Assembly: GCA_963796455.1 (NCBI GenBank)
Contig: CAWCLO010000004.1
Coordinates: forward strand, 1,120,001-1,184,000
Source: Candidatus Sulfomarinibacteraceae bacterium
GTDB lineage: Bacteria > Acidobacteriota > Thermoanaerobaculia > Thermoanaerobaculales > Sulfomarinibacteraceae
Direction: 5' to 3'
DNA: 64,000 nucleotides
The notes below the pieces were generated by a model that was not told where the DNA came from, did no database searches, and saw only the letters and a list, made by a program, of their open reading frames with translations. This document shows, piece by piece, positions 6,876 through 61,627 of the stretch (its first letter is position 1; each line of letters opens with the position of its first letter). The translations under genes were made by a program, and so were the position numbers.

Positions 6876-7038
6876 TTGTTGATTCCCCCTGAGGCCGCCA
6901 GTTTGGTCTATCGATTGGTTTCGATATTGGTGCTGTTCCGTCGAACCTCAAGCTTACTCCAAGAGATTGAAATGAATCGGCTCGGTTCAGGCTGCCGATG
7001 ACCTGTCGGCGACTTTCGGAAATCTGGCACATTGACCT

Positions 7039-8576: not shown

Positions 8577-8630
8577 AAAGGTGCCATGCGCCCCCTGGCA
8601 CCTTTATTGGAACCTGGCACTGATGGCACC
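8577..8630. repeat. miniature element made of the two RAYT-element termini
   Basis: AAAGGTGCCA (8577-8586), 9 nt, TGGCACCTTT (8596-8605), then partial copies ACCTGGCAC (8612-8620) and TGGCACC (8624-8630). These match bases 2-11 of the 31-bp TIR. Confidence 0.75.
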
Positions 8631-8642
8631 GATGTCACGCCG

Positions 8643-11600
8643 TCACGGAGAGGTCCCCGACCACCTCGATGTGTCTCCGGATTCGAAATCGTCGACGAAG
8701 ACATTTTCGTTCGCGATAAAAATCACCGCTGCTTCATCACAGGGTCCGGGGCTAAATGTTCTCACCCAATACCATCCCGAGGCAGATGCCGGGATCTCGA
8801 TCGCGGAGGTGGTCTCCCCCGTGATCCACTGGTATCCATCGAAATCGCCATCGACCATCAAGGCTGTGGACTCGATTTTCGCGATCGACCTGATGGAAGG
8901 GGCAACGCATCCGGAATCGGCCGTCATCGCAGTGACCGTTGGGGTCGAGTCGCTGAAAACCATGTTCGTGTTGTTCTCGTGCGGCTCAGTGAAGGTCGAC
9001 ACTGCGAAATCATACGGAGAGCCTGGCTGGAGCCACGTGACCGGGTAGCTGTCGTTGGCCTTTGTCCAGGTCCAACCGGCGGATTCCCAATCCTCGGATC
9101 CAGCGAGTTTCGAGAAGGGCTCGTAGGCTCCGACATCTGCCGAATACGGAATCGGCACCCAGCTCAACCACACCGTGTGGTCGCCCACAGAAACGATCTC
9201 GAGCAGGCCGGGGGCCACTGTCTGCGTGTCTCCCCAATAACCGTCGAAGGTCCCATGCTTTTGGTCCACAAATTCCCTTGTCTCTTCATTCTCAGCTTGA
9301 AGCGCGTTCCAGGACAGCCTCAATCCGCTGCCGTCCCACAACTGCTTCAACTCGGTGATCCGCGATGGAATCTCCCCGGACAGACGGTTGGATCTCAGAT
9401 TCGCGTTCTCAAGCGCCGAGAGGTCGCAAAACTCGTTCGGGATGAGACCGCTCAAAGCGTTTGCCGCCAGGTTGAGATCCGCCAACTGGCTCAGAAATCC
9501 AATTTCGGTCGGGATCGGCCCGGTGAATTCGTTGAAACTGAGATTGAGGGTTCTCAGCGCGCTCAGGTTCCCGAGCTCAAGCGGAACGGTACCGACGAGG
9601 TTGTTCGATTCCAGGTCGATCGTAACGATCTGCGGGACACTGTTGCACCACACTCCAAACCACGAACACTCTGTACCCCGATCGTTGAAATCAATGTCGT
9701 CGATGCGCCAACCTGTACGGTCGGTCCAGTCAGCGCCGTTGGCTGCGTTGTAGAGCGCGATGAGCGTCGCCCGCTCATCCTCCGGAATGGCGGTAGGCGG
9801 TCCCCCCGTGCAACCGAGAACATCCACCGGCACACGGACGAGATTGGTGTCCTCGGACTCTCCGGCAGTTGCCCGAACGAGATAGTGATAGGTCTCAGGC
9901 GGCGAGACCGCATGAACGTCGGTGTAGGTGGTCGTCGGCACAAGCGCAGCGATGCGGTCGGATTCCGAGGGTTGGAAGTCGGGCGAGGTGCTCCGGTAGA
10001 TTCGGTAGGACACGTCGTCGCCGCAAACGGATTCGCCGACATCGGTCCAGTCGAGCCGTACGCTGCAGACGCTATTGGGGAGGAGCACCGCCGAATCCAA
10101 CCCGGAGAAGTCCGGTTCGTCGGCCTGTCCGTCGCAGTCATTGTCTGCGCCGTCGCAGAATTCTGCCGCGCCTGGATACGTCAGTTCTTCCATGTCATCA
10201 CAGTCGTCGTCGCTGATGACATAGCCGAAAGGCGCTGTGCACCCCAGGGTCGGCCGATCCGGATCACCGTGGCCGTCGGAGTCGACGTCCATGAAGAACT
10301 GTTCCGCACAGACGCGGTAGAGTTCCCGACCGTACTCATCATCATCAGCAGAGAACACGAGGTCGTTGCCGACGGTTGGCCCGATGAACGGGGAGGATCC
10401 GGACGGCCCCGGGTTGACCTCTGCCAGCAAGCGAGTGCCTGCCGAGGTGCCGTCCGTGGTCCACAGCTCACTCCCGTGGTCCGGAGTGATGGGATTCAAG
10501 ACCAGGACGCCGTTGACCATTTTCATCCCGAACGGGTCCGAGCCCGTTGGGCCTGGCCAAAAATCAAGCACCAGCAAGGTGCCGTCAGCGGTGCCGTCTG
10601 AGCGCCACAACTCTTCGCCGTGAGCTCCATCGTCCGCAAGGAAGTACACCTCGTCGCCGCCTGCGACGAAATACCAAGGAGACGAGGCGGTGATACCAGG
10701 ATTGATGTCCTTCACCATCCAGGTACCGGCCTCGGTACCGTCACTCCGCCACAGTTCCAATCCCTCCGACACCGTACGGGCTCCGAAGTACGCGATTTCC
10801 CCCACCCTCACGATCTCAGACATGTATATTTCCCACGAGCTGCCTGGGCCCGACCGGATATCTTTCACGATCCACGTTCCGGCCTCGGTGCCGTCGCTCC
10901 GCCACAGTTCCTTGCCCGCAACCCCATCGTCCGCCCAGAAAAGAGCAAAGCCATCCATCGCGGTCAAGTTCCCCGGATCCGACCCTGTCGATCCGGTGGC
11001 GATGTCCTTGACCATCGACGTACCCATTGGCGTACCGTCGGAGATCCACAGTTCCTGTCCATTGGCTCCATCGTCGGCACGAAACAGAACCTGGTTGGCA
11101 AACGGCAGGAGGTACCACGGCCCCCCCGACTCGGGGCCGGGATTGATATCCAAAACCATCTCGGTGCCGGCGGTCGTGCCATCGCTCACCCACAACTCGC
11201 GCCCGTTGGCACCGTCATCGCCGTCGAAGAACTGTCCCCCCGGAAGTCACGGATCCGAAGACGAACGAAGCGCCGACCGGGTTGATGTCCTTGAGCAACG
11301 ACGTCCCCTCCGGAGTGCAATCGGTCGTCCACAGCTCCTGGGAATAAGACCCCGGATGTGGCAACAAAAAAAGCTGGTTTCCCAACAAGGACCGCGCGGA
11401 GGGGCTCGAGTGACCTGTCTCGTGCACGTCGAAAATCAGATTGGTACCGCCCGTTGTCGCATCGCTGGTCCAGGGCTCGGATCCGTGGGGTCCGTCGTTC
11501 GCACTGAAAAAGACATCGCCGTTTCCACAGGTTGCGAAGAAACCGACACCTCGATCGACTGGTCAGCGCCAGCGGGTCAAGCCAACAGTCCCACCTGCGG

Positions 11601-12992
11601 TTCCGTCGGTGATCCAGGGCCGGGTCACCGTCTGTTTCGTCGATGGCGTGAAAGAAAACCGCGGTGCCGGTGCTCAAAAAGCCATGGTTCGAAATCTTGC
11701 TGCTGTCGGGGCCGAGGTCGATATCTTCGATGATCACCGTGCCTTCGGCGGTGCCATCTCGGGGCACCTCCATGGTTCACTCCCATGCGTCCCGTCAGAG
11801 GCGGTGAAAACCACACCGAAGTCGGTCACAACCATCTCTGAGATCGTGGTCCAGTCAGGACCCGGAGTGATGTCTTTAACCATCGCGGTGCCCAGGGTGG
11901 TGCCGTCGGAAGCCCACAGTTCCCGACCCGAGATCCCGTCGTTGGCATCGAAAAAAACAGCGACGGGGTAGCCGCGAGGAGTTCGGGTGAGGAGTTCGAC
12001 GGCCCTTCCCAGACGTCCTTGACCATCGTCGTGCCTGCTTGGCTGCCATCGGATTTCCAGAGTTCGGTTCCATTGACGCCGTCAGATGCCGCGAAGAACA
12101 GCTGAGAATCGAAAACTCTCAAGTATCTTGGGGATGAGCTCGACGAACCACTCCGGATGTCCTTCACCATCAAGGTTCCGGAGTCTGTACCGTTGGACCG
12201 CCACAATTCGGTTCCGTTCGTTCCGTCGGAGGCTGCGAACACGACACCGGACACAAATGCCAGGTTCCGCGATGCCAGGGACGAGTTCGAACCAGGGTTG
12301 GGAGACGAGGGTCGTGCCCGGTCCGGTCCCATCCGAGATCCACAATTCGTATCCGTGTGTCCCGTCGTCCGCCCGTATTATTACCCCGCTGCTGGTCGCC
12401 ACCATGTAGTAAATCGAGGATGAGTCGGCACCGGGTCGGATATCTTTGACCATCACGGTGCCGGCCGCGGTGCCGTCGCTGACCCACAACTCTTTGCCAT
12501 GAGTACCGTCGTCTGCCGTGAAGAACAGCTTGCCCGCTGCTGCAATCGAGTATTGCGGCAGGCCGGACGGACTTCCTTCCAAAATGTCCTTGACCATCCA
12601 GGTGCCGCCGGGCGTCCCGTCAGTGCGCCACAGCTCTCAACCACCTTATCCCATCGTTGGCGGCGAAATAGACGATGTCTCCAATTCGTCTGAACCCAGA
12701 TGGCCCACTGTCGGATGAGCCGGTCGATGTCGAATAAGAGTGTCGTGCCGGCAGCCGTCCCGTCCGTATACCGAGAGTTCAACCCCCTCACGATCGTTCT
12801 GACCGTTGAAGACGACGACGCTGCCTGTCCACCCCAAGGTAGGCGTAATCCTGAAAACGATCCGCGGGGGTGGCCGGCCCAGTATTGATGTCCCGAACCA
12901 AGACCGGCGTTTGTGCACAAAGAACAGGCGTCACCAATGTCAACGCCATCGACGAATGGTGACCGCCACGGGGGCCTCCACCGCCCCGCCAC
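8643..12992 (-). pseudogene. ELWxxDGT-repeat protein with Cys/Asp metal-binding motif, plant-type LRRs, FN3 and FxDxFESG tail; 5' half multiply frameshifted
   Basis: ELW.SDGT..GT..VKDI repeats continue across ORFs 12788, 12453, 12082, 11826/11876, 11186 and the intact 850-aa ORF 8643..11195. That ORF has DCDD..YPGAAEFCDGADNDCDG, L.G.IP LRRs and VFVDDFESGDTSRWS. Likely start is the GTG at 12992 after GAGGAGG. The frameshifts may be read errors. Confidence 0.8.
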
Positions 12993-13116
12993 GGCTCCCT
13001 CCTCGCCTGAGCACGGGACTCCGCAGCTGCGTTCACCGTCAATGGATGGTTCCTTTCAACCCCTCGGGACGTCCCTTTCTTCAAAACAAATCACCTCAAA
13101 CAATGACTTGAACGAG

Positions 13117-13170
13117 TCAATACCCCCGTACCTGGCACCTTTATGGCACCTTTACCTTTTTGGCACCTTT
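13117..13170. repeat. solo TIR of the RAYT-like element with stuttered end repeats
   Basis: TCAATACCCCCGTACCTGGCACCTTTA (13117-13143) is identical to 24449-24475. Further TGGCACCTTT copies at 13144-13153 and 13161-13170. No transposase is adjacent. Confidence 0.9.
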
Positions 13171-14078
13171 ATTTTCATTCTCGGCTTGTGTAACTGCAAA
13201 TAGGAGGTAACGATTTTGCTTTCGAAAAGTGTGACCGCCGTTTCGGACGACGTGACCTTGGCGATATGATCCAGTACCGGGGAAAATGCCTCGATGGTCG
13301 GCTCAACCTGATTACTATTCTTGGACAAGCTCTCCGATCCGATGTCCAGCTTTGCAGTCACAGGCGCCTCGTCTCGAGGTCCGACGATTCGCAGCGTCCA
13401 GGTCGGCGCACCATCCATGCTACCCCGGGTCAGGAGGGCGAACGATGTCGAGACATCGTCGCGCAACCGGTAGGCCGCCAAAACATCGTAGCTCACGCGA
13501 CGAGTTTTCTGTTTCAGGAGATAGACTCTCGTCGACAACCACTCAGGATAATAATCCTCACGGTCTGACCGTTCCGGAAATTGGCGGAACGCAAGAATGC
13601 CCGTGACCCGGCCGCGATCCACAATGAAATCGGTTCGATAGCCAACCAGCAACGAGCTTCCGATGCTTTCATCCACGAGAACGTCTGCAAGATGGGCACC
13701 ATTCGAAGACGAAGAAAAGACCCAGAGATGATGAGGGGGCCGTTGCCGGGATCCAAATTGAGTGATGACGACCACCGAACGCTCGTCAGTCCACGTTTTG
13801 CACCGAATCTCCACCGCGCCTGGGAACCCCGGGAGATCGGCGCCGTCCAGCCAGTCCCCGAACGCCCCGAGCACGTCCTCTGTTCCTTGGAAGCAGTCAC
13901 TCTCGATGTCGGCCCAAATCTCAACCCGACGATCACCGTAGTCATGATTCGGGGCGAGATTTTTCAACCTGCCTCTCAGATCCTCGTAACGAACGGAAGA
14001 CACCAGTTGCAGATCGACTGCCTGCGCAGCGAACGATGAGAGCATAATGGAAAAAATGACTATGAAGGGCATCTTCAT
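13152..14078 (-). CDS. secreted hypothetical protein, putative immunity protein for the upstream lytic transglycosylase domain
   Basis: Signal peptide (AAQA-VD). Starts 3 nt after the toxin stop. Its last codons and stop lie inside the TIR stutter. Confidence 0.6.
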   Translation of the reverse strand: MKMPFIVIFSIMLSSFAAQAVDLQLVSSVRYEDLRGRLKNLAPNHDYGDRRVEIWADIESDCFQGTEDVLGAFGDWLDGADLPGFPGAVEIRCKTWTDERSVVVITQFGSRQRPPHHLWVFSSSSNGAHLADVLVDESIGSSLLVGYRTDFIVDRGRVTGILAFRQFPERSDREDYYPEWLSTRVYLLKQKTRRVSYDVLAAYRLRDDVSTSFALLTRGSMDGAPTWTLRIVGPRDEAPVTAKLDIGSESLSKNSNQVEPTIEAFSPVLDHIAKVTSSETAVTLFESKIVTSYLQLHKPRMKIKVPKR

Positions 14079-14081
14079 CTC

Positions 14082-16643
14082 CTACGGCGGAACCGTTGCG
14101 CCCCAGATGGTTGGGTCTTGAGAAAAGAGGTGCATCTGTTTGAGCACAGCGTTCGCATAGGGATCGCCCGCCCCATTATAGTCACCCAACATCTCCTTGA
14201 TCTGCTGACGAAGTGTCGCTTCCTCGCAGTTGATACCGCAAGCCGATTCGAAGTTCTGAGATTTGTTGAGGATGAAGCTGGCCAGGGCCGTGCCGACCTG
14301 GATGGAAACCGCAGGGTTGAGGACCTGGTCGAACAGATGGCTGTCTTCATCGCCGAAATCGTATTCGATCCTCATCATCTTGCCCCGTTGAGTGGGGTAA
14401 TCATGATTGAGAACTCCGTACTGCATCAACCCGAAGGAACCGGAGAGAAGGTACTGTGAATTGACGGAGTACTGCGGATCGTACAACGAGTTGTCGAAAA
14501 GATTGATCATCAGATGTTCGTGGGAGGTGCCGTCACGCATGAAGTTGAAACCACCACACCCGGTCGCACCCGCGTTGGTCGATATCCACCCGCTGATCGA
14601 AGTGGTGGTGAGATCCCCCGCGGGGAGATTTGCCGTGGGATAGATCTTGCAGTCGGGAACGTCAGCGAGGCCGTTCAGGAGGGTTTCGAGGTCGGCGATC
14701 CCGGCGGGAAGGGTGAGGATTTTTTCGCCTCTCCTGTCGGTGCCCGTACCGTAGCCGATATCTCTCTGCACTTGAGGGTACAGGGTAATCGAGAGCCCGG
14801 CAGGGGCCGCCAAACCCAGGTTCAATTGTGAACTCGCCGGACCGTACTCGATGCTGAAACGCTGCCCCACTGGTGAAGCGGCCGGGTATTCATCCATCGG
14901 GAGGTCGGCAACGCTGCCCGGTTTCCCATGCCGTCGATGCCCGACCTGAATCCAATCGTTGATTCTGGCGCCGAATTCGCCCTGAGGAGGGTTGCAGACC
15001 GGTGGTGGAGCGGAGCCCGCGTACGGTGTGATGCACGCGGGTGAATTCCTCGGCGTTACGGTGAACAACCTCAACGTCTCATTGGTCTGAAGATGACCCG
15101 CAAGACCCGCGTCAAACAGATCGAGCGTCATCGAGCCCGGCGGAATGGAGACCGCCCTGGATGGCGGATTGTTGTTTTCGGCTGTTCTGCCGGCAAAGGC
15201 GTACATGCAATAGGGCTCGACTTCAATGCGGTGGGCATTCGAGGTGTAGACCGAAAGGTCCTCGCACTTTCGGCCGGCCTGGATATCCCACCCTCCTCCA
15301 GCGAAATACTTGAAATCGAAGGTGTACGGCTCGTATTTGTAGGCGTTGGTTCGAATACGGATACTTGCAAAGACACCCGGTGTGGCCTGCCGGGTGGCAA
15401 AACCGCTTTCCTTCAGGATTAAGGCCTTGGCGACATCAGACGGGATTCCGTGACGATCGCAGAAATAGCTGATGATGTTGTCGATATTGAACCGGAGTGG
15501 ATCCGCGGGCGGGTCGGCTCCCACATTGCTGGCGCAATTGGTGTCTTCGGTACCCTGATTCTCCTGCCGACACCAATCGCTCTGGATGCGTTCCCGCGCC
15601 ACACCTCTGAGTTGGACCGTCGCCCAGTCGTTTGGATCCGCAGCGCCATTGAGCCGCACGATCATCGGAACCCGCGGGCTTCCGTAACCATAGGCCCTCA
15701 GGGCCGGATCGGGTGGCAGAAAGCTGTTGGGTATGGGTGGATTCGTTTGATCGAAGAGCGGATGGAGTTGGTCTGATGCGATGTGGAACGCGAGAATGCG
15801 TCCGGCATCGTCGGCGCCATCGGTGATGTTGCGGAAGCTCAAGGTGCGGATAGCGAAGTTCTTGGTGTCGTCGGGATCCAGGTAGTTGTACTGGATCGTC
15901 ACCGAGTTCTCGGCGGAATCAATGAGATACTCGAGCGCGCTGCCGCCGTTGACCGGATCGGTGACCGCTGAAAACCACGGCACAGCCAGCCCCGTTTCGC
16001 TCGGCCCGGCCGCGGGCCAACCATCTTTCCATTCAACAACAATCGGGTAGTCTCCGGCGCCCGGAGCACCGGTCGGCACCCTCTGCACCGCGTAGGTCAG
16101 CCGCCGGTGCTCGCCGAGCGGGATTTCTTTGACCAGGCCTTGGCCGTACATCCGGGCATCAATCCTGTCCATGGCGTCGGCGGCCGATGCGCCACCCTTG
16201 CCAACCTCGATTTTGAAGGCGGTTGCCGAGACCTCGAAATTCGCACAGTCGGTGCACGGTTCGGCCTCGCCGATAATTGCCGTCTTGGTGGGTTTGAGGC
16301 GAATCTCGGCAAGGTGGCTCGTCGAGTAGAATCCGGCCCGCGTTTCTTTGAAATTCACGGTCACGATCTCGGCGTGACCTTCGGCATCCTCGTATCGCAG
16401 CGACAGGTCATCGGGCGGTGACTTACCCGCTGTTGTGATGTACTCGAGCCAATAGGTTTTTTCGAACTCGATCTCTTCATGGGCGACCGGAGAATAATCC
16501 TCCCTCAAAAAGCGAACCCCGGCAACGAAGAAGCTGTACGACTCCCGATCCCACTCGGTGTATTGGTTGATCAACTCGGGTGCCAACGGCTCTGCATAGA
16601 CACGGTAGTACCCCGGTTCCTTTGGTGCCTTGGACACCCACAC
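14082..16643 (-). CDS. C-terminal part of giant secreted protein 2, ending in a split SLT-type lytic transglycosylase domain
   Basis: GIPSDVAKALILKESGF, SFGLMQ, LNPAVSIQVG and DYNG..YANAVL. The frame is open back to ~16760 and overlaps the end of 16571..23017. It lacks its own signal peptide, so it is probably a frameshifted continuation. Confidence 0.7.
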   Translation of the reverse strand: MWVSKAPKEPGYYRVYAEPLAPELINQYTEWDRESYSFFVAGVRFLREDYSPVAHEEIEFEKTYWLEYITTAGKSPPDDLSLRYEDAEGHAEIVTVNFKETRAGFYSTSHLAEIRLKPTKTAIIGEAEPCTDCANFEVSATAFKIEVGKGGASAADAMDRIDARMYGQGLVKEIPLGEHRRLTYAVQRVPTGAPGAGDYPIVVEWKDGWPAAGPSETGLAVPWFSAVTDPVNGGSALEYLIDSAENSVTIQYNYLDPDDTKNFAIRTLSFRNITDGADDAGRILAFHIASDQLHPLFDQTNPPIPNSFLPPDPALRAYGYGSPRVPMIVRLNGAADPNDWATVQLRGVARERIQSDWCRQENQGTEDTNCASNVGADPPADPLRFNIDNIISYFCDRHGIPSDVAKALILKESGFATRQATPGVFASIRIRTNAYKYEPYTFDFKYFAGGGWDIQAGRKCEDLSVYTSNAHRIEVEPYCMYAFAGRTAENNNPPSRAVSIPPGSMTLDLFDAGLAGHLQTNETLRLFTVTPRNSPACITPYAGSAPPPVCNPPQGEFGARINDWIQVGHRRHGKPGSVADLPMDEYPAASPVGQRFSIEYGPASSQLNLGLAAPAGLSITLYPQVQRDIGYGTGTDRRGEKILTLPAGIADLETLLNGLADVPDCKIYPTANLPAGDLTTTSISGWISTNAGATGCGGFNFMRDGTSHEHLMINLFDNSLYDPQYSVNSQYLLSGSFGLMQYGVLNHDYPTQRGKMMRIEYDFGDEDSHLFDQVLNPAVSIQVGTALASFILNKSQNFESACGINCEEATLRQQIKEMLGDYNGAGDPYANAVLKQMHLFSQDPTIWGATVPP

Positions 16644-23017: not shown

Positions 23018-23245
23018 TCCTCCTTTATACCTTGAAAATCCGGAGGATACTTTGCCGGTTTTGCCTTCATGGTGAACGGAGAACCCCTTTCACCCTCACG
23101 AAATCGCCCTCACTGAATACGATATGGCCCGACTCGTCCAACCGCAATGGGCCGATTGAGTGGTTTTTCTCATCAAAGTGAGTGGTTTTGCTCAAGTATT
23201 CGTCTGATTCTTGGACATTATGCGAGCAAAAGGGCCTGTTGTTCC
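22933..23245 (-). repeat. duplicated promoter/leader/signal-peptide module, copy A
   Basis: 22933-23177 aligns ungapped to 58018-58262, and 23102-23245 aligns ungapped to 61628-61771. Confidence 0.9.
23157..23194. promoter_or_regulatory. tandem TGAG-N8-CTCA operator-like sites, 22-bp period
   Basis: TGAGTGGTTTTTCTCA (23157-23172) and TGAGTGGTTTTGCTCA (23179-23194). Homologs at 61683-61698, 61705-61720 and 58242-58257. Confidence 0.55.
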
Positions 23246-23252
23246 GTAAAGG

Positions 23253-23490
23253 TAAAGGTGCCAGGTACGGGGGTATTGATGTTTTGGCTCACAACGGTTC
23301 CTCCGCTCGCGCGAGGATTGCTGAATCGACTTCATTCATCTTATCGCCGAACTGGCTGTCCTCGACTCTGATAAAGGTGCCAGGTACGGGGGTATTGATG
23401 TTTTGGCTCACAACGGTTCCTCCGCTCGCGCGAGGATTGCTGAATCGACTTCATTCATCTTATCGCCGAACTGGCTGTCCTCGACTCTGA
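23253..23490. repeat. 119-bp exact tandem duplication of TIR plus transposase 3' end
   Basis: 23253-23371 equals 23372-23490. Confidence 0.9.
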
Positions 23491-24475
23491 GGTCAGAGGC
23501 CTTGCTCACCCATCGGCTCGCTGTTTCGATGTACTTGTTAAGGCCGAAAGCCATCTCCTTGACCGAAAACCCATACAATTCGACGCCAAGCCACGCAAGT
23601 GTCATCCGAGCCGTTACGATCGGCTCACTTCGTTTTCGACTCCTGAGGTCATTCAACGAGATGCCGCAAGCTTCTGCACCCAGTCCGAGGAATTGTTCCA
23701 GGTCGACCTTGGGTCTCACCATGACTGTGCTCAGTCCATCCATGCCGATTCTCGGTCGATTCTGGTCAACCGCGATTTCATCTCCACTTGCTTGTTTTGG
23801 AGGACGACCGATTCGCCACCACGGAAGCCGACCTGGGCCCTCCTTCTGCCACTCCTCTGAACGCCCATGCGTCATCGCTGCTCGGTATCCAGCTTTTGCT
23901 CGACTACGGTTTGGATCGAAAGCAAAAAGCGTTTCGTCTCGATCGATGAGTCCCCGTCCGACGGCCCTGCCGATCACCTCCCGATGACCGCTCCATCGGT
24001 ATTTAGCTGGGTTCGGAACGATTCCGGCAGTCACTGGGTTGAGGTGGATGTATGCAATCAGTTTTCTGAGGTATTCAGGATCATCCACGAACCGGGAACG
24101 ATAGCGACCCTGCCAAAACGGACCAAAGACCCGATGACGGCCGTTGTAGCTCTGCGAAAACCGGTGATGGATGGTTCGCATCGAACGCGACAGCGCCACC
24201 TCTCCCATACGAACGGCAAGGTGGTAGTGGTTGGACATGATGCACCAGGCCAGGATCTGAAGATCATCCCGCTTTTTCACCCTGGCGATAAGATCCTCTA
24301 GGCGCTCCGCTTCATCCTCGTTGCGAAAGATGTGCTCACCGCGGGAAACCCGGTTGTAAACGTGATAGATGCCGCCCGCAACCAGAATCCTCGGCCGTCG
24401 TCCCATGTTTTGACCCCACCAGAATGAATTGGTGGAGGGATCATAACATCAATACCCCCGTACCTGGCACCTTTA
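23372..24475 (-). mobile_element. TIR-bounded RAYT-like element, copy 1
   Basis: Perfect 31-bp inverted repeats TAAAGGTGCCAGGTACGGGGGTATTGATGTT at 23372-23402 and reverse complement 24445-24475. Decayed end repeats extend to 24520. Confidence 0.85.
23408..24406 (-). CDS. HUH Y1 tyrosine transposase (RAYT/TnpA-REP-like) with C-terminal DnaA-C-like HTH
   Basis: YHVYNR, CIMSNHYHL (HUH), FWQGRY, YIHLNPV (catalytic Tyr) and YRWS, followed by a helical HTH-like C-terminal domain. Confidence 0.9.
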   Translation of the reverse strand: MGRRPRILVAGGIYHVYNRVSRGEHIFRNEDEAERLEDLIARVKKRDDLQILAWCIMSNHYHLAVRMGEVALSRSMRTIHHRFSQSYNGRHRVFGPFWQGRYRSRFVDDPEYLRKLIAYIHLNPVTAGIVPNPAKYRWSGHREVIGRAVGRGLIDRDETLFAFDPNRSRAKAGYRAAMTHGRSEEWQKEGPGRLPWWRIGRPPKQASGDEIAVDQNRPRIGMDGLSTVMVRPKVDLEQFLGLGAEACGISLNDLRSRKRSEPIVTARMTLAWLGVELYGFSVKEMAFGLNKYIETASRWVSKASDLRVEDSQFGDKMNEVDSAILARAEEPL

Positions 24476-24531
24476 TGTGGCACCTTTACCTTTATGGCAT
24501 TTTCTTTGTTTACCTTTACGAAACTATGTTG

Positions 24532-25536
24532 TCAATCGTGGAGGTACGAAACGTTTCGAGATCCGTTGGGATTCAGATACAAAAGCAATGCTGCGCGAGC
24601 AACTTCACGATCATTTTCGAGCGCGATAATCGGCCGACCTGTCACCATACCCTTCCCATAATTGCCCTGAACCTTGAAGTAGAAATAGACCGTCGACGGG
24701 CTTCTTGCGGCCGACAACTCGAGGTTGTCCTGATAACCGGATTCGGGTGCTTCGGTCATTCCTCGCATCCCGATTTCGGGCCATACACCCACCTCTCCGG
24801 GATCGTAAACAACAAAACCATCGCCGTCATCGAGGTCATTGAATCTGAGCCAACCGAGGCCTAGACCCTTTCTGGCACGGCTGTCGCCCTTCTTCTTGAA
24901 CTCTGCGGCAGGCAGTCGGGAGTTTTTGCCCTGGTCCGCTTCAAGATAAACGTACGGCCAACTCAACTCCTGCTTCTTCCCGTCTTTGATGAGCCAGGTT
25001 TCTCCGGCTGTCTGGCGTTTGACACCGACGACCAACACCGGGCCCTGATACTCGGCCCCGAGTATCCCCTCATGTTTCTTCAAAGCAACCGGAATAGGTT
25101 CCTTTTGTAGAACGATTTCGATATCCAATTTTTCAACCCCACCGGGATTTTGTCGGGGAACCTCTGGATGGAATGCAAACGACCATATTTCCGGGTAATA
25201 GCCGTCCTTCAGTATTGAGAGGTTGACAGAGGAAATCCGGCGTCGACTTATTCGAAAATCTCCGTCGACTTCGATGCGCTTATAGTCGATCTTCCTGTTG
25301 GATACTTGATCACCAAGATCCCGAAAATAGTACTTAACCGCAACTTCACTCAACGGCGTGCCGTTCTCGGAGACAACTCGACCACGGATATCGACGTCGC
25401 CAACATGAGAATCTACGATTTCCCGATCAATCTCAAGTAGAGATTCCTGAGATTCTTGGGCGCACGCAGAGCATACGAACAAGAACAGAAAACCCGAGAC
25501 TGGAATCAAGAGGCGTCCAATTACTATCTCCCTCAT
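24532..25536 (-). CDS. secreted/lipoprotein-like hypothetical, putative immunity protein of the alpha/beta-hydrolase toxin tip
   Basis: Hydrophobic signal (FLFVCSACA). Starts 4 nt after the TAG (25541-25543) of the hydrolase remnant. Paralog of 5865..6875. Confidence 0.7.
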   Translation of the reverse strand: MREIVIGRLLIPVSGFLFLFVCSACAQESQESLLEIDREIVDSHVGDVDIRGRVVSENGTPLSEVAVKYYFRDLGDQVSNRKIDYKRIEVDGDFRISRRRISSVNLSILKDGYYPEIWSFAFHPEVPRQNPGGVEKLDIEIVLQKEPIPVALKKHEGILGAEYQGPVLVVGVKRQTAGETWLIKDGKKQELSWPYVYLEADQGKNSRLPAAEFKKKGDSRARKGLGLGWLRFNDLDDGDGFVVYDPGEVGVWPEIGMRGMTEAPESGYQDNLELSAARSPSTVYFYFKVQGNYGKGMVTGRPIIALENDREVARAALLLYLNPNGSRNVSYLHD

Positions 25537-25540
25537 CCGA

Positions 25541-26348
25541 CTACTCCGTTCCGGCAGGAATTATGCCGTTTGGTTGTTCATCCGTTTTCACCGAAAAGTT
25601 TTGGTACCACCGCCAAATCTCGGCAGGCGGCCCCTCGAAACCAGCTATGTTCTTTTGGTCGCCAGCCGAAAAGCGAAGAATCAATACTATAGAAGTTCTC
25701 AGCCGAAGACTCACCTTGGTTTATACTCGGCCATCCCAGCGGGTTTGCTAACCTTCTTAAAAACAATGACACGCCACCGTTGGGGAAGTCAGGATTGGCA
25801 TGGCGGGGATTTCGTACCAAAGGTCTGGACGATTCCCTGGTTCATGCACCTGAAAGTCATCTGCTACGGGAACCCTGTTGCTCTGGCTAATCCGCGTCCA
25901 ATTATCCTCCTCACCCTGGGACAATTATCGTTTCCAGGATCCTCGAACTGGGGCAACGTGGTCCTACTAAGAGGAAGGGCGTCGTTGTATTTCATCAGTT
26001 CGAGCACGAAGTCCTCTGAGGCAAAGCTGTTGAATAGCGCATCCATCTGCTCTGATACCGGGTGCCCCTCTTGACCAAACCAGAACGCCCAAGATCCACG
26101 CATTAACTCCTCGACAGAGAAGCTGACGGTGCGCGCTGTAGATTGCCGGGCGCTGATCCCACAGAGTTTCTTCCAAATTGCCGCTTCAACGGAGATCATA
26201 TTGTGGATGAGCTTCTGGTCACTCTCGACTGAATTTAACCGCAAGGCGTCAAGGGTCACGAGATTCCCGAGACTATGAACTAAAAGGTTCACGTTCTCTC
26301 GCTCAGCACCCCATTCACCCAGCACTATTTCTCAAAGAAACTGCTTTG
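25541..26348 (-). pseudogene. 5'-truncated, frameshifted alpha/beta-hydrolase (lipase/esterase-like toxin tip)
   Basis: VNLLVHSLGNLVTLDAL nucleophile elbow, NSFASEDFVL (Asp) and GWRPKEHSWF (His) lie in different frames. The product ends ...QPNGIIPAGTE*. It begins abruptly at the TIR (26349). Confidence 0.65.
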
Positions 26349-27448
26349 TAAAGGTGCCAGGTACGGGGGTATTGATGTTTTGGCTCACAACGGTTCCTCC
26401 GCTCGCGCGAGGATTGCTGAATCGACTTCATTCATCTTATCGCCAAACAGGCTGTCCTCGACTCTGAGATCCGAGGCCTTGCTCACCCATCGGCTCGCTG
26501 TTTCGATGTACTTGTTAAGGCCGAAAGCCATCTCCTTGACCGAAAACCCATACAATTCGACGCCAAGCCACGCAAGTGTCATCCGAGCCGTTACGATCGG
26601 CTCACTTCGTTTTCGACTCCTGAGGTCATTCAACGAGATGCCGCAAGCTTCTGCACCCAGTCCGAGGAATTGTTCCAGGTCGACCTTGGGTCTCACCATG
26701 ACTGTGCTCAGTCCATCCATGCCGATTCTCGGTCGATTCTGATCAACCGCGATTTCATCTCCACCTGCTTGTTTTGAAGGACGACCGATTCGCCACCACG
26801 GAAGCTGACCTGGGCCCTCCTTCTGCCACTCCTCTGTACGCCCATGCGTCATCGCTGATCGGTATCCAGCTTTTGCTCGACTACGGTTTGGATCGAAAGC
26901 AAAAAGCGTTTCGTCTCGATCGATGAGTCTCCGTCCAACGGCCCTGCCGATCACCTCCCGATGACCGCTCCATCGGTATTTAGCTGGGTTCGGAACGATT
27001 CCGGCAGTCACTGGGTTGAGGTGGATGTAGGCAATCAGCTTCCTCAGGTATTCAGGATCATCCACGAACCGGGAACGATAGCGACCCTGCCAAAACGGAC
27101 CAAAAACCCGATGACGTCCGTTGTAGCTCTGCGAAAACCGGTGATGGATCGTTCGCATCGAACGCGACAGCGCCACCTCTCCCATTCGAACCGCAAGGTG
27201 GTAGTGGTTGGACATGATGCACCAGGCCAGGATCTGAAGATCATCCCGCTTCTTCACCCTGGCGATAAGATCCTCTAGGCGCTCCGCCTCATCCTCGTTG
27301 CGAAAGATGTGCTCACCGCGCGAAACCCGGTTGTAAACGTGATAGATGCCACCCGCAACCAGAATCCTCGGCCGTCGTCCCATGTTTTGACCCCACCAGA
27401 ATTGGTGGAGGGATCATAACATCAATACCCCCGTACCTGGCACCTATA
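26349..27448 (-). mobile_element. TIR-bounded RAYT-like element, copy 2
   Basis: TIRs at 26349-26379 and 27418-27448 (30/31 match). Same orientation as copy 1. Confidence 0.85.
26385..27383 (-). CDS. HUH Y1 tyrosine transposase (RAYT-like), copy 2
   Basis: 332 aa with 7 amino-acid differences from copy 1 by my count, plus synonymous changes. Confidence 0.9.
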   Translation of the reverse strand: MGRRPRILVAGGIYHVYNRVSRGEHIFRNEDEAERLEDLIARVKKRDDLQILAWCIMSNHYHLAVRMGEVALSRSMRTIHHRFSQSYNGRHRVFGPFWQGRYRSRFVDDPEYLRKLIAYIHLNPVTAGIVPNPAKYRWSGHREVIGRAVGRRLIDRDETLFAFDPNRSRAKAGYRSAMTHGRTEEWQKEGPGQLPWWRIGRPSKQAGGDEIAVDQNRPRIGMDGLSTVMVRPKVDLEQFLGLGAEACGISLNDLRSRKRSEPIVTARMTLAWLGVELYGFSVKEMAFGLNKYIETASRWVSKASDLRVEDSLFGDKMNEVDSAILARAEEPL

Positions 27449-27467
27449 TAATATTACTTTAACTGTT

Positions 27468-28241
27468 TTATTGACACCATTTACCGAAAGTACCGTGAAC
27501 ACCCATGTTCAAAAAGATGCCGTCATTATTCAATGATTCGGAATGATCCAATTCTCTGAAATAGTCCGATTCATCTATGATGACCAAATTACTATTTTCG
27601 CGACCTAAATCAAGAAAAAATTTTCCCTCAAAATCATTGTCTAATATTATCCCGGTTCCGTCGTTCAAAATGGAAACAGATCTAACGCGACATTCCATTT
27701 CATTCCAAGGAAATTCAATCCGTCTTAAGATTTCACTTTCCTTGAACTGAATGATATTTACTTGTGTCTCTTTATCTCGATATGGATAGCCAGATATGTC
27801 TATACAAAACCATGTATCGTTAACTCTAACAAAGCTATCCCACAACTGCACGGGATTATGCACCGTCAAAAAGGGAAGTGGAACTACGTTCCCGTTACGC
27901 TGAATTGAATACTTTGCATTTACGAAATCTGAACGCCACATTTTCCCATCAACAGCCAATACATACCGCCCGCGTTCCAGCACTGTTACCACAACTCTTT
28001 CATCTATTCCGTTTGACTTCTTACAAACAGCCATCTCAAAAACGTGTTCTTTTTCGAATTCTGGAGAACAACCACAATAAACTGAAACGAGAATAAATAT
28101 TCCAAAAAAATTACTGAATATCCAAAAAGAATTAGATAAATTTTCGAAAACACGATCAAACTTTTGATGAGGTTCAACAGATATTAAATCGACAATATTT
28201 GAATTCAGAATCATTCTAAACCTTTGGTTAGATATATTCAC
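27468..28241 (-). CDS. low-GC putative Rhs immunity protein, possible lipoprotein
   Basis: GTGA overlap with the Rhs stop, visibly AT-rich, and a hydrophobic stretch ending SVYCGC. The true start may lie further downstream. Confidence 0.7.
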   Translation of the reverse strand: MNISNQRFRMILNSNIVDLISVEPHQKFDRVFENLSNSFWIFSNFFGIFILVSVYCGCSPEFEKEHVFEMAVCKKSNGIDERVVVTVLERGRYVLAVDGKMWRSDFVNAKYSIQRNGNVVPLPFLTVHNPVQLWDSFVRVNDTWFCIDISGYPYRDKETQVNIIQFKESEILRRIEFPWNEMECRVRSVSILNDGTGIILDNDFEGKFFLDLGRENSNLVIIDESDYFRELDHSESLNNDGIFLNMGVHGTFGKWCQ

Positions 28242-29575
28242 CTTCTCTGTGCCAGGGGATACCCATAACTTGTGGATGGAATTGATTGGCCAACGACCTC
28301 AACGGCAGAACCGAACCCGGAAAATTCTGCCCCACCCGTCCTCAAACTCTGGACAAAACGATGTTGGATTTTCGCGTGTCTGTTAAAAGATCGGATCCAG
28401 CTAGCCGGTGCACGCTCTTCCAGGTAAATGAAGGATTCGTTGGGAAAGCGAAGTCGTATCCGAGTCTTCCAAGCCAAAGACCTCGCATCTTCATTGCCTT
28501 CTACATCAAAGGTCGTGCGAACATCCTTTTCAATATGTGACCACCAGGTAGGTACACGCCCGCGTGCGATCGCCGCGCTCTCCAGGAAATTATAGGAAGT
28601 CCTGGCAGCCTCAAGGGCCTTTTCTCCCGCTCGATAGGGCTGATCCGGAGCCTGATTGTACAATCCTCCGCGAGAAATAGAAATCGCCACGGAACCAGCA
28701 ATCCCGTACCTAAGATCGAAAAAGTGGCCGATCCCGCCTCTAGGATTTAGTAGTCCCGTGAAACCCTCGTGTGCCCAGGTGTCCGCCCATGAGTGCAAGG
28801 CAATTCCTAAACTTATTAGGTTTCCGGTTCGCTCCGCTCTTATGAGGTTCAGTTTCGCAATAGGATTTGCCCTTTTCACAGGATGCCATTCAGGAGAGAC
28901 AAAGTGGAAAGAATAGAGGCGCCCTGGTAGGGATTCTAGCGAGCCCCAAAACAAAGGCAAAGGGCCTCCACCGGGATACGGTCGGGTGGTTGCGGAATCG
29001 TCAACAAACTGCGAAGCCCAGGATATTTGCGCCGCTTCATCTTGAGAGAAATCAGCTTCGCGAGCCAAGTAGTAGACAGCATAATAGTGAAAATCTATCG
29101 CATAGAGTCCTGAAGGATCCACAAAGTTGTTTGCGCTGAATTCAATCCATTTGTAAGGGTTCTGTGAAGAGTGCTTTACCGGATCTCTTCCAATAAACCC
29201 GACCTCTCCGGAACTCCACCGCGCCCGGTAGTAATACAACCCCAACTCCTCATGCCACGTCCGCCCCTGGAAGAGACTGGTGAGGCCGTAGCGGCTCTGG
29301 GCGAGCGGCGTGCTGTGGTCGGGTTTTGAGTATGCAACGAAGGTCTGATCAGTGAAGGTCGCGATGTGGGTGAAGTCGATTGACGGAAAGGCTACCGCAT
29401 TCGGAGTAGTTGCCAGGTCCTCCAGATTGATCTGGGTGACCTCGTAACGCTGCTGCGGATACCACGGAGCCCCAGTCTCGGCTGTCCACTTGAAGAGGTT
29501 TCCGCCCAGGCGTTCGCTTGATCCGGCGACGGCGTTCTCTCCCCGGTTCACAACGATTGCATCGGCAACATCCAA
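28238..29575 (-). CDS. Rhs-associated core end and C-terminal toxin domain (DUF6765-like)
   Basis: FQGRTWHEELGLYYYRARW...RDP...NPY...NFVDPSGL (DPSGL at 29105-29119). The tip contains DFHYYAVYYLA, SQFVDD, FHF and LGIALHSWADTWAHEGF. Confidence 0.85.
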   Translation of the reverse strand: MDVADAIVVNRGENAVAGSSERLGGNLFKWTAETGAPWYPQQRYEVTQINLEDLATTPNAVAFPSIDFTHIATFTDQTFVAYSKPDHSTPLAQSRYGLTSLFQGRTWHEELGLYYYRARWSSGEVGFIGRDPVKHSSQNPYKWIEFSANNFVDPSGLYAIDFHYYAVYYLAREADFSQDEAAQISWASQFVDDSATTRPYPGGGPLPLFWGSLESLPGRLYSFHFVSPEWHPVKRANPIAKLNLIRAERTGNLISLGIALHSWADTWAHEGFTGLLNPRGGIGHFFDLRYGIAGSVAISISRGGLYNQAPDQPYRAGEKALEAARTSYNFLESAAIARGRVPTWWSHIEKDVRTTFDVEGNEDARSLAWKTRIRLRFPNESFIYLEERAPASWIRSFNRHAKIQHRFVQSLRTGGAEFSGFGSAVEVVGQSIPSTSYGYPLAQRR

Positions 29576-58102: not shown

Positions 58103-58262
58103 TCCTCCTATATGCCGTGAAAATCCGGAGGATACCTTGCTGGTTTTGCCTTCATGGTGAACGGAGAACCCCTTTCACCGAAACGAAATCGCCCTCACTC
58201 AATACGATATGGCCCGGCTCGTCCAGCCGCAATGGTCCGATTGAATGGTTTTTCTCATCAAA
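58018..58262 (-). repeat. duplicated promoter/leader/signal-peptide module, copy B
   Basis: Ungapped match to 22933-23177. Encodes MMSHPAPHxxRIAILLLIVSAxAGAWGE. Confidence 0.9.
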
Positions 58263-58311
58263 TCTGGTGGTTTTGGGACGCGAATCGTTCAATTCGCGAT
58301 CAGATCGCTTC

Positions 58312-61502: not shown

Positions 61503-61627
61503 CGTGGCCCTCCTTGTCCTGCGACCGGACAGTTTCGAAGGTCAAATACGCCGTCCCGTCCAACTGTATTCCTCGACCAGCGGTTCGTTGCCGCCATGAT
61601 CCATTGATCAACCTCTTCAGGTAGCGG

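Follow-up and report, generated by a model that had tools for sequence, protein, structure and literature searches.

Known elements and arrays related to the locus

Displaced orphan tips and insertion sequences of the H-rpt/ISAs1 type are familiar constituents of E. coli Rhs loci. Gene capture by an HUH enzyme has been demonstrated for IS91/ISCR elements, which transpose by a one-ended rolling-circle route using Y2 Rep-like enzymes, have ends that are not inverted repeats, always carry captured genes to the same side of the transposase gene, and have built arrays beside integrons. IS200/IS605 elements possess subterminal hairpins and no terminal inverted repeats (TIRs), and encode a transposase of ~130-150 aa that has no HTH; for IS608, an orientation bias follows the direction of replication.

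The stretch of DNA analysed here, 64,000 nucleotides from a Candidatus Sulfomarinibacteraceae bacterium (the window), holds two copies of a TIR-bounded, RAYT-like Y1 HUH element with a DnaA_C-like C-terminus. The element is a member of the TIRYT/TIRtron class, TnpA_REP subclass 2.1.2, as that class is set out in the accessible text of Di Nocera, De Gregorio & Rocco 2013 (PMC3733652) and Quentin et al. 2018 (PMC6006769). To the extent of these texts, the two share a RAYT-like transposase of the Y1 HUH type (motifs HUH, WQ and YIHxNP) whose C-terminal HTH resembles Bac_DnaA_C. Long TIRs instead of REP hairpins, solo repeats, a copy number that is low to moderate, and occurrence in Planctomycetes-type genomes are also common to both, whereas the GGGGWSAS motif described in most TIRYT repeats is absent from the window repeat. 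Toxin loci, arrays and the reiteration of tips as a target are not mentioned in the accessible text of PMC3733652 and PMC6006769, and the association of TIRtrons with toxin loci seems to be new to the literature.

Other systems are less similar. REPtrons (a RAYT with REP/REPIN) have a related enzyme, inverted repeats flanking the gene and non-autonomous copies, but the window repeats are neither short hairpins nor numerous (nine matches to a TIR 26-mer at up to four mismatches in the 5.02-Mb genome, six of them inside the window), and several diverse transposase copies are present per genome, RAYTs being typically a single, vertically inherited gene in the accessible part of their literature. 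IS200/IS605 elements share the Y1 HUH catalytic domain (Pfam Y1_Tnp), flanks with no target duplication and orientation with replication, and differ from the 332-aa enzyme and 35-nt TIRs found here. IS91/ISCR elements likewise use an HUH enzyme; here it is a Y1 enzyme with TIRs, and capture is only hypothetical. Integrons and rAID-1, as far as the available text of Ross et al. (bioRxiv 10.1101/471110) describes them, are comparable in their co-oriented small cassettes, orphan immunity genes included, with a repeat behind each, but here every unit has an HUH gene, the repeats are transposon ends, toxin remnants are decaying, and a scan of 24 window ORFs detected no tyrosine recombinase. With E. 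coli Rhs loci the window shares an Rhs core, a variable C-terminal tip, an immunity gene, and downstream orphan modules with insertion sequences among them; it differs in that its orphan derives from a non-Rhs giant protein and has no Rhs core, and in that the inserted elements are Y1 HUH TIRtrons.

Toxin and immunity genes of the window

All genes in this section lie on the minus strand, which is the leading strand at this locus. The three toxin/immunity pairs proposed in the first-pass annotation are plausible, with putative immunity roles suggested by position. The first toxin gene is an Rhs (YD-repeat) gene (28238-36994) with RHS_repeat, DUF6531 and YD_repeat matches and, in a genome search, Rhs_assc_core at 35.5 bits; its core end and a C-terminal DUF6765 domain (E 2.9e-24) occupy 28238-29575. 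The gene is spread over frames -1/-2/-3/-1, and its orthologues in the relatives G008 and G001 are single ORFs. The putative immunity gene for the DUF6765 tip (27468-28241, 257 aa) overlaps the toxin ORF by 4 nt and encodes a hydrophobic N-terminal segment; it has no Pfam or NCBIfam match, and a 60% identical orthologue occupies the equivalent position in G008.

In the case of the second pair, the toxin domain, an alpha/beta-hydrolase of the lipase type, survives only as a 3' remnant (25541-26331) in at least three frames, its 5' end being cut 17 nt from the TIR tip of TIRtron copy 2. The lipase is intact in G014, where a 476-aa ORF with a GxSxG motif (AHSLGN) matches the remnant by tblastn in two frames (43% and 39%), and in L060, where it matches DUF900. 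The putative lipase immunity gene (24532-25536, 334 aa) is intact, and its signal-like N-terminus also points to such a role; homologues are found 3' of the lipase in G014 (51%), L060 (35%) and G006 (43%). A paralogue (5865-6875, 54%) accompanies a TPR/GDSL-like gene of 496 aa (7039-8529), and no element lies behind this pair (5865-8529).

The third module is likely to be carried by a Calx-beta giant surface protein of 2148 aa (16571-23017; Calx-beta E 3e-50), which in its N-terminal part shares 39% identity with the giant ORF preceding the lipase in G014. The giant ORF overlaps by 73 nt an 853-aa ORF (14082-16643) that may be lytic-transglycosylase-like, as suggested by motifs recognised by eye only (ES, GLMQ, YNGAG) and by a weak Atlas lead (0.87 to clusters in which 17-25% of members have SLT); it has no match in Pfam, NCBIfam or PDB. 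The putative immunity gene that follows (13152-14078, 308 aa) has a signal peptide-like start, again suggestive of immunity, and no family match in Pfam or NCBIfam, and its last eight codons consist of TIR-tip repeats. It had been proposed that two cassettes start with a gene cut at a TIR. This holds for the lipase, at 26349, but position 23245 is the edge of a 211-base 5' leader of the giant gene (23030-23240), a repeated module rather than a cut gene, with copies before two other window genes (58115-58275, 91%; 61625-61766, 90%) and no Rfam match. An ELWxxDGT-repeat/LRR surface protein gene (8643-12992; ELWxxDGT_rpt 334 bits, LRR, MopE) is apparently split over several frames, its 144-nt repeats extending to 12654 in other ORFs.

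TIRtron copies and repeat pieces

Both TIRtrons are on the minus strand, in agreement with the direction of replication. Copy 1 (23372-24476) has inverted ends at 23372-23405 and 24442-24476 and a transposase ORF at 23408-24406, and copy 2 (26349-27449) has inverted ends at 26349-26382 and 27415-27449 and a transposase ORF at 26385-27383. The 1.1-kb elements are 97.3% identical, with ends of 35-37 nt and no target duplication seen in their flanks. The earlier description of a TIR-bounded RAYT-like HUH element is upheld by these inverted ends and by matches of both 332-aa transposase ORFs to Y1_Tnp (47.9 bits) and NCBIfam REP_Tyr_transpos (88.9 bits, cut-off 80); a Bac_DnaA_C match at the C-terminus is sub-threshold (20 bits, cut-off 31.5). 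The copy 1 transposase has the motifs H60-Y-H62, W98-Q99 and Y119-IHLNP. Differences between the two transposases are 18 synonymous and 7 non-synonymous (pN/pS 0.12), with the catalytic and HTH parts unchanged, and because of this purifying selection the copies look like separate arrivals or long-maintained genes rather than the result of recent local duplication.

The tip is reiterated around the elements. A perfect 119-bp tandem copy (100%) of the transposase-3' end of copy 1, comprising the TIR and 84 bp, lies at 23253-23371 (minus strand), and extra partial tips lie just outside copy 1 at 24478-24499. Behind the 308-aa gene there is a 28-nt solo TIR (13117-13144) with two further tip copies (13117-13178 overall, tip fragments 13144-13178), and 3' of the ELWxxDGT gene two facing tip fragments with GGCAC repeats (8577-8630) represent either a scar or a minimal derivative. 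The TIR 26-mer matches the window six times at up to three mismatches, at the places given in the first-pass annotation, and never in 100 shuffles. Stop codons lie 18 nt (27468 gene), 55 nt (24532 gene) and 7 nt (13152 gene) from a repeat tip, within the ~60 bp originally noted. That the same end is met in the same orientation each time is true, but is not independent evidence, because it follows from the elements sharing the orientation of a series of minus-strand genes. Among members of the family in the genus, the tip (A/T)A(A/T)(A/C)GGTGCCAGG is common to all, and the inner TIR sequence varies with the transposase lineage.

Association with toxin loci in the genus

The link of this element family to polymorphic-toxin loci in the genus is real. 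A transposase copy lies within 3.5 kb downstream of 12 of the 16 Rhs core ends, where ~0.1 would be expected, and toxin arrays in five well-assembled genomes hold 14 of 29 full-length copies in ~0.3% of the DNA, array spans being estimated. Seven further genomes of the genus show the association, with several element lineages. Each array unit has its own full transposase gene, the transposases within an array are diverse, and broken and partial copies are common.

Homology among relatives ends at repeat tips. For instance, window positions 27467-30828 match G008 at 73% up to the immunity stop codon, after which G008 has an element of a different type (39% identical) behind the cassette and, 3' of the orthologue of the 257-aa gene, scraps of at least three element types. 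In G005, the end of the G008 element (95% over 243 nt) stops exactly at the tip, beside a different Rhs gene and immunity ORF. Mobility is indicated by one metagenome contig in which a 99%-identical end has another flank, and by 84 repeat matches (with a transposase in 35 cases, without in 32, undetermined in 17) spread over 69 metagenome loci. G001 carries a 251-bp end duplication, and its C4/C5 pair (95.7% over 4.26 kb, Rhs 3' end included) looks like a locus duplication.

The proposal that the HUH enzyme captures cassettes in an integron-like way is not supported. Every unit has a diverse transposase gene of its own rather than one enzyme serving many sites, the DUF6765/immunity cassette precedes a different element in G008, one and the same TIRtron end is met behind different cassettes, and lipase/immunity pairs and immunity homologues also occur with no element. 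Rhs orphan arrays of the sister family are mostly devoid of transposases (G033 has 21 core matches and no transposase match). In metagenomes the context was ordinary, with no recognised toxin, in 48 of 50 loci carrying this repeat, and neither circular junctions nor cassette presence/absence variants were seen in the low-depth contigs.

How the arrays may have formed

The leading account, which we hold about as firmly as we doubt it, treats TIRtrons as IS-like elements that are drawn to one another's tips, build up 3' of immunity genes, and supply breakpoints for rearrangement. According to this account, the leading strand bears a run of three polymorphic-toxin modules (Rhs-DUF6765, the lipase remnant, and the Calx-beta giant with the lytic-transglycosylase-like ORF), each followed by its own immunity gene, and TIRtrons, in which TIRs enclose the gene of a Y1 HUH transposase with a probable C-terminal HTH domain, have colonised this run repeatedly. 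Insertion would occur close 3' of stop codons, preferably at or beside pre-existing tips, leading to layered tip scraps, tandem end duplications and clusters, and resident elements would then serve as breakpoints. The 5' part of the lipase may have been lost by deletion beside copy 2, or by recombination between copies, the remnant presumably decaying afterwards while the immunity gene remained intact. The elements' part in cassette turnover would thus be passive, providing portable homology or breakpoints rather than a capture enzyme. Tip homing is supported by the hexamer GGTGCC, which lies no more than 46 nt beyond the repeat in 34 of the 105 unique instances, compared with 5 of 83 at 254-300 nt from the repeat and 1-2 of 105 for control hexamers. 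Also in favour of this account are the layered scraps at one site in G008, the end duplications in the window and in G001, the uncoupling of cassette and element between relatives, the cassettes that lack elements, the transposase-free Rhs orphan arrays of the sister family, the cut and frame-broken lipase with its intact counterparts in G014 and L060, and the agreement of orientation with replication.

Y1 enzymes are not known to carry out adjacent deletion or tip-directed insertion. Tip homing and tolerance alone do not by themselves explain why toxin loci are the seeds. Nor is a general 'junk-yard' effect enough, since the scan of Rhs-downstream arrays gave no match to any other transposase family. 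The very strong enrichment at toxin loci, the collinearity of lipase, immunity gene and element in three contexts, the alternation of single cassettes with elements of different lineages, and the divergence of the two window copies under purifying selection were counted against this account.

Active capture is an unlikely alternative, though the best of those considered. The TIRtron would mobilise DNA upstream of the transposase gene (the immunity gene and the toxin 3' part), either by missing one end, as in IS91/ISCR, or as a composite of two copies, and would land beside a resident tip; an array would then have been assembled from orphan immunity genes, every one delivered by its own element. 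Lipase, 334-aa gene and element are indeed collinear in the window, G014 and L060, with the junction alignment running through the tip, and cassettes alternate with elements of different lineages in the G001:C4, G008:C21, G005:C13 and G014:C6 arrays. The 5'-cut lipase abuts a transposase-3' end, an ORF with an Rhs-core-like stretch begins 55 nt past an element in L107 and is followed by a second element, and a PIN/HEPN cassette lies between two elements in L091; the low pN/pS also suggests separate arrivals. Of the 14 elements that come first behind an Rhs gene, 10 have the immunity gene at the 5' side of the transposase, but this bias is weak, the kin are non-independent, and a replication-strand bias predicts the same. 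Cassette and element are uncoupled in both resolvable comparisons (G000 vs G008, G008 vs G005), no unit of cassette plus element was found in near-identical form at two sites, and of the six genes in the 334-aa family three lack an element. To our knowledge, moreover, one-ended transposition is a property of Y2 rolling-circle enzymes and not of Y1 enzymes.

It is more improbable still that the array copies are domesticated, host-maintained nickases. Their cuts at the tip behind immunity genes would initiate recombination through which toxin-immunity modules are exchanged or gained, and they would resemble integrons, or the Bacteroidales rAID-1 immunity arrays, in function while relying on an HUH enzyme. 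Consistent with such a role are the purifying selection on the two window copies, whose catalytic and HTH parts are unchanged, the conservation of the tip in all lineages, and a similar neighbour, an amino-acid permease with a Usp domain, beside some singleton copies in G001 and G005, which would fit vertical inheritance if the positions are syntenic. There is also precedent in integron-like immunity arrays with a tyrosine recombinase, as outlined in the available text of bioRxiv 10.1101/471110. However, the arrays have many diverse copies, often broken or partial, rather than one enzyme; sister-family Rhs arrays form without a transposase; the window Rhs gene and lipase are decaying rather than being renewed; and tip-initiated recombination has no direct support.

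Coincidence or artefact is very improbable. The window pattern would then reflect poor assembly of a repeat region holding three local copies that are not independent, with no link to toxins. This would fit the frequent frame breaks in the Rhs gene, the lipase and the ELWxxDGT gene, a 2-nt indel in one metagenome contig where the lipase remnant shifts frame, and the reduction of the 'same end' argument to co-orientation. It is largely refuted by the genus-wide association, with its several element lineages and its excess of copies at Rhs ends, and three unbroken neighbouring ORFs of 6.4, 7.5 and 13.7 kb also speak against it.

Gene content and probable decay of the toxin locus

The toxin genes of the window are arranged on the minus strand, beginning with an Rhs gene (28241-36952) that ends in a DUF6765 domain, followed by a 257-aa ORF (27468..28241) and copy 2 of a TIRtron. 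Next come a lipase-type alpha/beta-hydrolase remnant, a 334-aa ORF (24532..25536), and TIRtron copy 1 with a duplicated end, and then a 2148-aa Calx-beta giant gene with its leader, an 853-aa ORF, a 308-aa ORF (13152..14078), a solo repeat, an ELWxxDGT/LRR gene, and a scar of a tip, the tip being the outer end of the terminal inverted repeat (TIR). All the parts of an Rhs polymorphic toxin locus are present, namely YD/RHS repeats, an Rhs core, a variable C-terminal domain and an adjacent putative immunity gene. The Rhs gene matches RHS_repeat (115 bits), YD_repeat_2x, DUF6531, Rhs_assc_core (35.5 bits) and DUF6765, and the putative immunity ORF of 257 aa downstream is conserved together with the toxin in the related genome G008.

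Judged from its reading frames, the main toxin gene looks inactivated. The Rhs gene runs through frames -1, -2, -3 and -1, with changes at ~36900, 30800, 30455 and 30056 and a short shift near 29650; its orthologues in G008 and G001 are single ORFs that read through. The lipase remnant is spread over at least three frames and begins mid-domain, 17 nucleotides from the tip at 26349, as the first-pass annotation of a cut gene at this site had proposed. Its identity as a lipase is drawn from relatives that carry the domain ahead of a homologue of the 334-aa ORF: in G014, a homologue that is 51% identical comes after an intact 476-aa open frame bearing AHSLGN, and in the metagenome locus L060 the domain, which matches DUF900, forms the end of a protein longer than 1600 aa, with the homologue next. 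The Rhs and lipase frame breaks are read as decay and not as general assembly error, since three neighbouring ORFs of 6.4-13.7 kb are unbroken. A 2-nt indel relative to one metagenome contig lies at the point where the lipase remnant shifts frame. The ELWxxDGT gene (8643-12992) seems to be frame-broken too, because four short ORFs upstream of its 850-aa ORF carry the repeats on in different frames.

Three toxin/immunity pairs had been proposed for the locus. All three are plausible, the immunity genes being putative by position. The Rhs-DUF6765 toxin is backed by Pfam and the lipase by relatives. For the third pair support is weak: the 853-aa ORF is a candidate lytic transglycosylase by virtue of ES, GLMQ and YNGAG motifs seen by eye and a weak Atlas lead (score 0.87), and it has no match in Pfam, NCBIfam or PDB (the best PDB hit, E 0.63, is noise). 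Its neighbour, the 308-aa ORF, has a signal-like start; a PDB hit to a designer PPR protein (E 1.2e-4) was judged uninformative, no single stretch passing alone. The 853-aa ORF also begins inside the tail of the giant ORF before it, the two sharing ~70 nt in different frames (16571-16643), and the G014 lipase does likewise (L028 15637-15706). Such an arrangement could mean that one gene is split, that a frameshift site is shared or that there are two genes.

A cut gene had also been suggested at 23245, a view that does not hold. The segment at 23030-23240 is one of three copies of a ~200-bp leader found before large surface-protein genes, recurring with 90-91% identity at 58115-58275 and 61625-61766, ahead of the genes starting at 58102 and 61502. 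It is also present elsewhere in the source genome (G000:C6:266180-266306, 71%), and sequences upstream in loci of G020 and G005 align with it as well. The leader may be a shared promoter or 5' UTR; an Rfam search of 22900-23300 returned no match.

Anatomy and classification of the TIRtrons

The two TIRtron copies (23372-24476 and 26349-27449) are 1.1 kb each, 97.3% identical and in direct orientation, and each encloses a 332-aa ORF on the minus strand between TIR arms of 35-37 nt that are 92-97% complementary and spaced by 1032-1036 nt. A 26-mer from the repeat has six window matches at up to one mismatch, and none in 100 shuffles, at the places where the first-pass annotation had noticed repeats. 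Allowing up to four mismatches, the 5.02-Mb assembly holds nine matches, six of them within the window; of the others, one stands alone at C4:242098 and two make up a diverged pair on C6. For the 11-mer TAAAGGTGCCA, nine of ten genome occurrences are in this locus. Smaller remains accompany the full elements: a perfect 119-bp tandem copy of the transposase-3' end (23253-23371), two extra tips (24478-24499), a 28-nt solo repeat (13117-13144) with two more tip copies after it, and two facing tip fragments (8577-8607). The C6 pair (G000:C6:4908-5413) is inverted, with its repeats ~500 bp apart, no transposase, and DUF4336 and FG-GAP genes adjoining; it looks like a miniature derivative. More tip matches are found nearby, at C6:3950 and C6:7523.

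The 332-aa ORF matches Pfam Y1_Tnp (47.9 bits, cut-off 23) and NCBIfam REP_Tyr_transpos (88.9 bits, cut-off 80), and its catalytic motifs, H60-Y-H62, W98-Q99 and Y119-IHLNP, are unchanged between both copies, in keeping with the earlier description of a TIR-bounded, RAYT-like HUH element. A Bac_DnaA_C match on residues 244-286 (E 6.9e-4, 20 bits) lies under the 31.5 cut-off, and a relative (L026:11416) reaches 23.6 bits. The TIR-flanked layout recurs at 13 of 15 transposase genes scanned in relatives, the two misses being a truncated ORF in L029, and L032. No other transposase family matched window ORFs at E up to 0.01.

In the available text of Di Nocera et al. 2013 (PMC3733652), RAYT-like genes between long inverted repeats are defined as TIRtrons, and in that of Quentin et al. 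2018 (PMC6006769) most TIRtron enzymes belong to TnpA_REP subclass 2.1, the 2.1.2 members having a Bac_DnaA_C-like or HTH (HTH_23, HTH_28) C-terminus. Because its enzyme family, motifs and TIR layout fit the published definition, the window element is assigned on sequence grounds to the described TIRYT/TIRtron class, with which it shares a RAYT-related Y1 HUH transposase (HUH, WQ and the catalytic Tyr in YIxxNP) and long terminal inverted repeats around the gene instead of REP hairpins, but not the GGGGWSAS motif, since no register of the window repeat ...GTACGGGGGTATTGA... fits GGGG[AT][CG]A[CG]. The accessible portions of both papers report this motif for the majority, not all, of TIRYT repeats.

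Other mobile systems fit less well. The many short palindromic REPs or REPINs of a REPtron (RAYT plus REP) are absent, there being only nine repeat matches in the genome, and a 9-mer of the tip occurs 70 times against 68-81 for control 9-mers, which is no excess. IS200/IS605 elements have subterminal hairpins and no inverted terminal repeats, whereas the window element ends in inverted repeats; hairpin ends were rejected for it, as the tip palindrome GGTGCCAGGCACC is limited to some relatives.

Association with toxin-immunity modules

Taken alone, the window provides a weak argument for a link to toxins. The recurrence of the same TIR end, in the same orientation, behind immunity genes had been put forward as independent evidence, and it reduces to the elements pointing the same way as a series of minus-strand genes; the three or four cases are probably not independent. 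Orientation of the elements could itself be set by replication-strand bias, since by GC skew the minus strand is the leading strand at the locus. Cumulative GC skew peaks at ~980000 on the same contig (G000:C4), ~140 kb before the window, so the locus is near a skew switch, which is probably the terminus.

The case is instead made by the relatives, where the anticipated enrichment at toxin/immunity loci was found. The transposase family is present in 33 of 41 related genomes. Among the matches listed, 12 of the 16 Rhs core ends (TIGR03696) in the genus, over eight genomes including the source genome, are followed on their own contig, 1.0-3.4 kb downstream, by a match or fragment of the transposase, where ~0.1 would be expected by chance from match numbers and genome sizes, with the reservation that kin are not independent and that G008:C3 and G008:C18 are near-duplicates. 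The four exceptions are G005:C5, G008:C30, G008:C33 and G024:C16:125118, the first three also checked by tblastn. On G001:C4, four elements come after a further Rhs gene that the core model did not detect. In the five best-assembled genomes (G000, G001, G005, G008 and G014), 14 of the 29 full-length copies among the matches listed (at least 286 residues covered) are in polymorphic-toxin arrays, which by our estimate add up to ~75 kb of 24.7 Mb. Ordinary genes adjoin the remaining 15, which are singletons, for instance NrfD/FeS, molybdopterin oxidoreductase, amino-acid permease, LpxD/FabH and AcrB genes. No other transposase family matched in the toxin arrays scanned. The concentration of TIRtrons behind toxin-immunity modules in this genus is real, and it appears to be unreported so far, there being no report in the available text of the literature that ties RAYT, TIRYT or tyrosine transposases to polymorphic toxins or Rhs.

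Among the singletons, transposase genes adjoin an amino-acid permease/Usp gene in two species (L167 in G001:C6 and L168 in G005:C1). Palindromic tips (GGTGCCNGGCACC) are present in L168 and in another G001 locus, L165, and the tip pattern finds none in L167.

Tips as breakpoints and possible recurrent targets

Comparison of relatives agrees with the proposal that breakpoints coincide with TIR tips. Window 27467-30828 aligns to G008 at 73%, with the alignment ending at the stop codon of the 257-aa ORF, beyond which are elements only 39% identical in protein. The flanks of G005:C13 and G008:C21 are 85-89% identical, and the element end common to both (95% over 243 nt) ends exactly at the tip, where a different Rhs paralogue and a different immunity ORF adjoin in G005:C13. 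The tips therefore act as breakpoints. Window 23372-24851 and 25982-26297 are collinear with G014 (67%). By these alignments, cassette and element are inherited together in some cases and separately in others.

The tip common to all paralogues examined is (A/T)A(A/T)(A/C)GGTGCCAGG, and the inner 15-20 nt of the repeat vary by lineage, often with a short direct repeat within. That the tip is shared and the inner repeat differs suggests that all lineages are cleaved at the same site and that each has its own binding site. Outside the repeat, partial tips recur systematically: of 105 unique instances, 34 have GGTGCC in the same orientation within 46 nt of the repeat, against 5 of 83 at a greater distance, and control hexamers give 1-2 of 105. 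In G008, the orthologue of the 257-aa gene has behind it first tip scraps, then a solo repeat belonging to a second type, next a partial tip and last a full element of a third type, a layering that indicates repeated hits at one site.

End duplications of 119 bp (window 23253-23371) and 251 bp (G001:C4; L025 12443-12945) are seen; both lengths leave a remainder of 2 on division by 3, possibly by chance. One metagenome contig has a 99%-identical element end with a different flank. Public-read (Logan) contigs, with shares of 0.05-0.16, showed no joints, and their depth is uninformative on circular forms or on the presence or absence of cassettes. Between the window copies there are 18 synonymous and 7 non-synonymous differences (pN/pS 0.12), all outside the catalytic and HTH parts, which argues that they are not a recent local duplicate. 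In a tree of 29 transposases, with rows hand-chosen from loci fetched for other reasons, array copies fall at four or more places.

The transposase stop (23385-23398 and 26385-26398) overlaps a GTG codon, ATG in relatives, creating GTGA or ATGA; outward reading would give MS(Q/R)NINTxVPGTF, continuing into the duplicated transposase C-terminus for copy 1 and in frame with the lipase remnant past one stop codon for copy 2. The repeat was rejected as the start of flanking genes, as outward frames are mostly 10-60 codons and long ones hold a normal start further on. Open frames from the tip after the transposase-3' end are long at 6 of the 21 ends examined in relatives, and these may be either cut or complete genes.

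Possible roles of the elements

The reading we favour, to which we give an even chance, is that the TIRtrons are IS-like elements that would home to tips, pile up behind immunity genes and, once piled up, cause deletions and exchanges. Ranked second, and doubtful, is active capture by TIRtrons in the manner of ISCR elements; IS91/ISCR elements differ in having a Y2 rolling-circle transposase, the window enzyme being of the Y1 family. Rather unlikely is a fuller version in which the genus TIRtrons are vehicles that deliver and stack toxin-immunity modules, nicking at the GGTGCCAGG tip, carrying the upstream immunity gene and a toxin piece, and docking at a resident tip; if true, HUH elements would be building up an integron-like stock of orphan immunity genes downstream of Rhs and other giant toxin genes, by a Y1 counterpart of ISCR-type capture. 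A domesticated enzyme that starts recombination, third in rank, is improbable.

Integron-like capture as such, the mechanism suggested by the first-pass annotation, is not supported. An integron relies on an IntI-type tyrosine recombinase, and a scan of 24 window ORFs gave no match to an integrase family; a single enzyme there serves one site per cassette, whereas here each unit has a full transposase gene, of differing lineages and with its own inner repeat, and cassette and element are uncoupled in the G008 and G005 comparisons. The closest functional precedent for immunity-gene collection is the rAID-1 array of Bacteroidales, which, in the available text of its description (bioRxiv 10.1101/471110), collects immunity genes via a XerD-type recombinase. 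That array combines a XerD-family recombinase with repetitive intergenic sequences and orphan immunity genes; here there is one orphan immunity gene (24532-25536), beside a dead toxin, and no recombinase is among the 24 window ORFs scanned.

TIRYTs are a widespread HUH class with no known activity, target or role, and the route by which new C-terminal toxin tips and immunity genes enter Rhs-like loci is unsettled. A genus that has half of its surveyed full-length TIRYT genes in toxin arrays, with homology breaks exactly at their tips, provides a concrete system for both questions. The predictions are that cleavage falls at the conserved tip, that binding is to the lineage-specific inner repeat and that tip-like sequence is the target; the system also lets transport of immunity genes by HUH elements be tested directly. 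Even if the elements are only passengers, they would be a clear case of target-site homing shaping toxin loci.

How far the association extends

The association is narrower in the sister family, where G034:C4 is the only array with a transposase among the matches listed (69 for the Rhs core; 61 weaker transposase matches exist besides those listed). There are no transposase matches in G033, which has 21 Rhs-core matches, or in G037, and G038, with 20, has one on another contig. Within the 334-aa family, an element lies behind three of six genes (window, G014 and L060) and is absent behind the other three (window 5865-6875, G006 and G008).

Metagenome contigs hold at least 119 stretches with the window-type repeat. 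Of 69 unique loci among the matches listed, annotation covered the 50 that measure 2.4 kb or more, including a scan of 176 flanking ORFs, and polymorphic-toxin context was found in L060 and L107 only; the remainder are beside Ser/Thr kinases, Fic, PIN/HEPN, peptidases, sulfatases, transporters and many unknowns. The 84 repeat matches among those listed comprise 35 with a transposase inside, 32 without one despite an interior of at least 1.2 kb, and 17 not judgeable. In one metagenome contig (L091 1468-7092), window-type elements in direct orientation lie on both sides of a 250-aa ORF, a PIN gene and a HEPN_LA2681 gene, so that the structure resembles a composite whose cargo is not Rhs.
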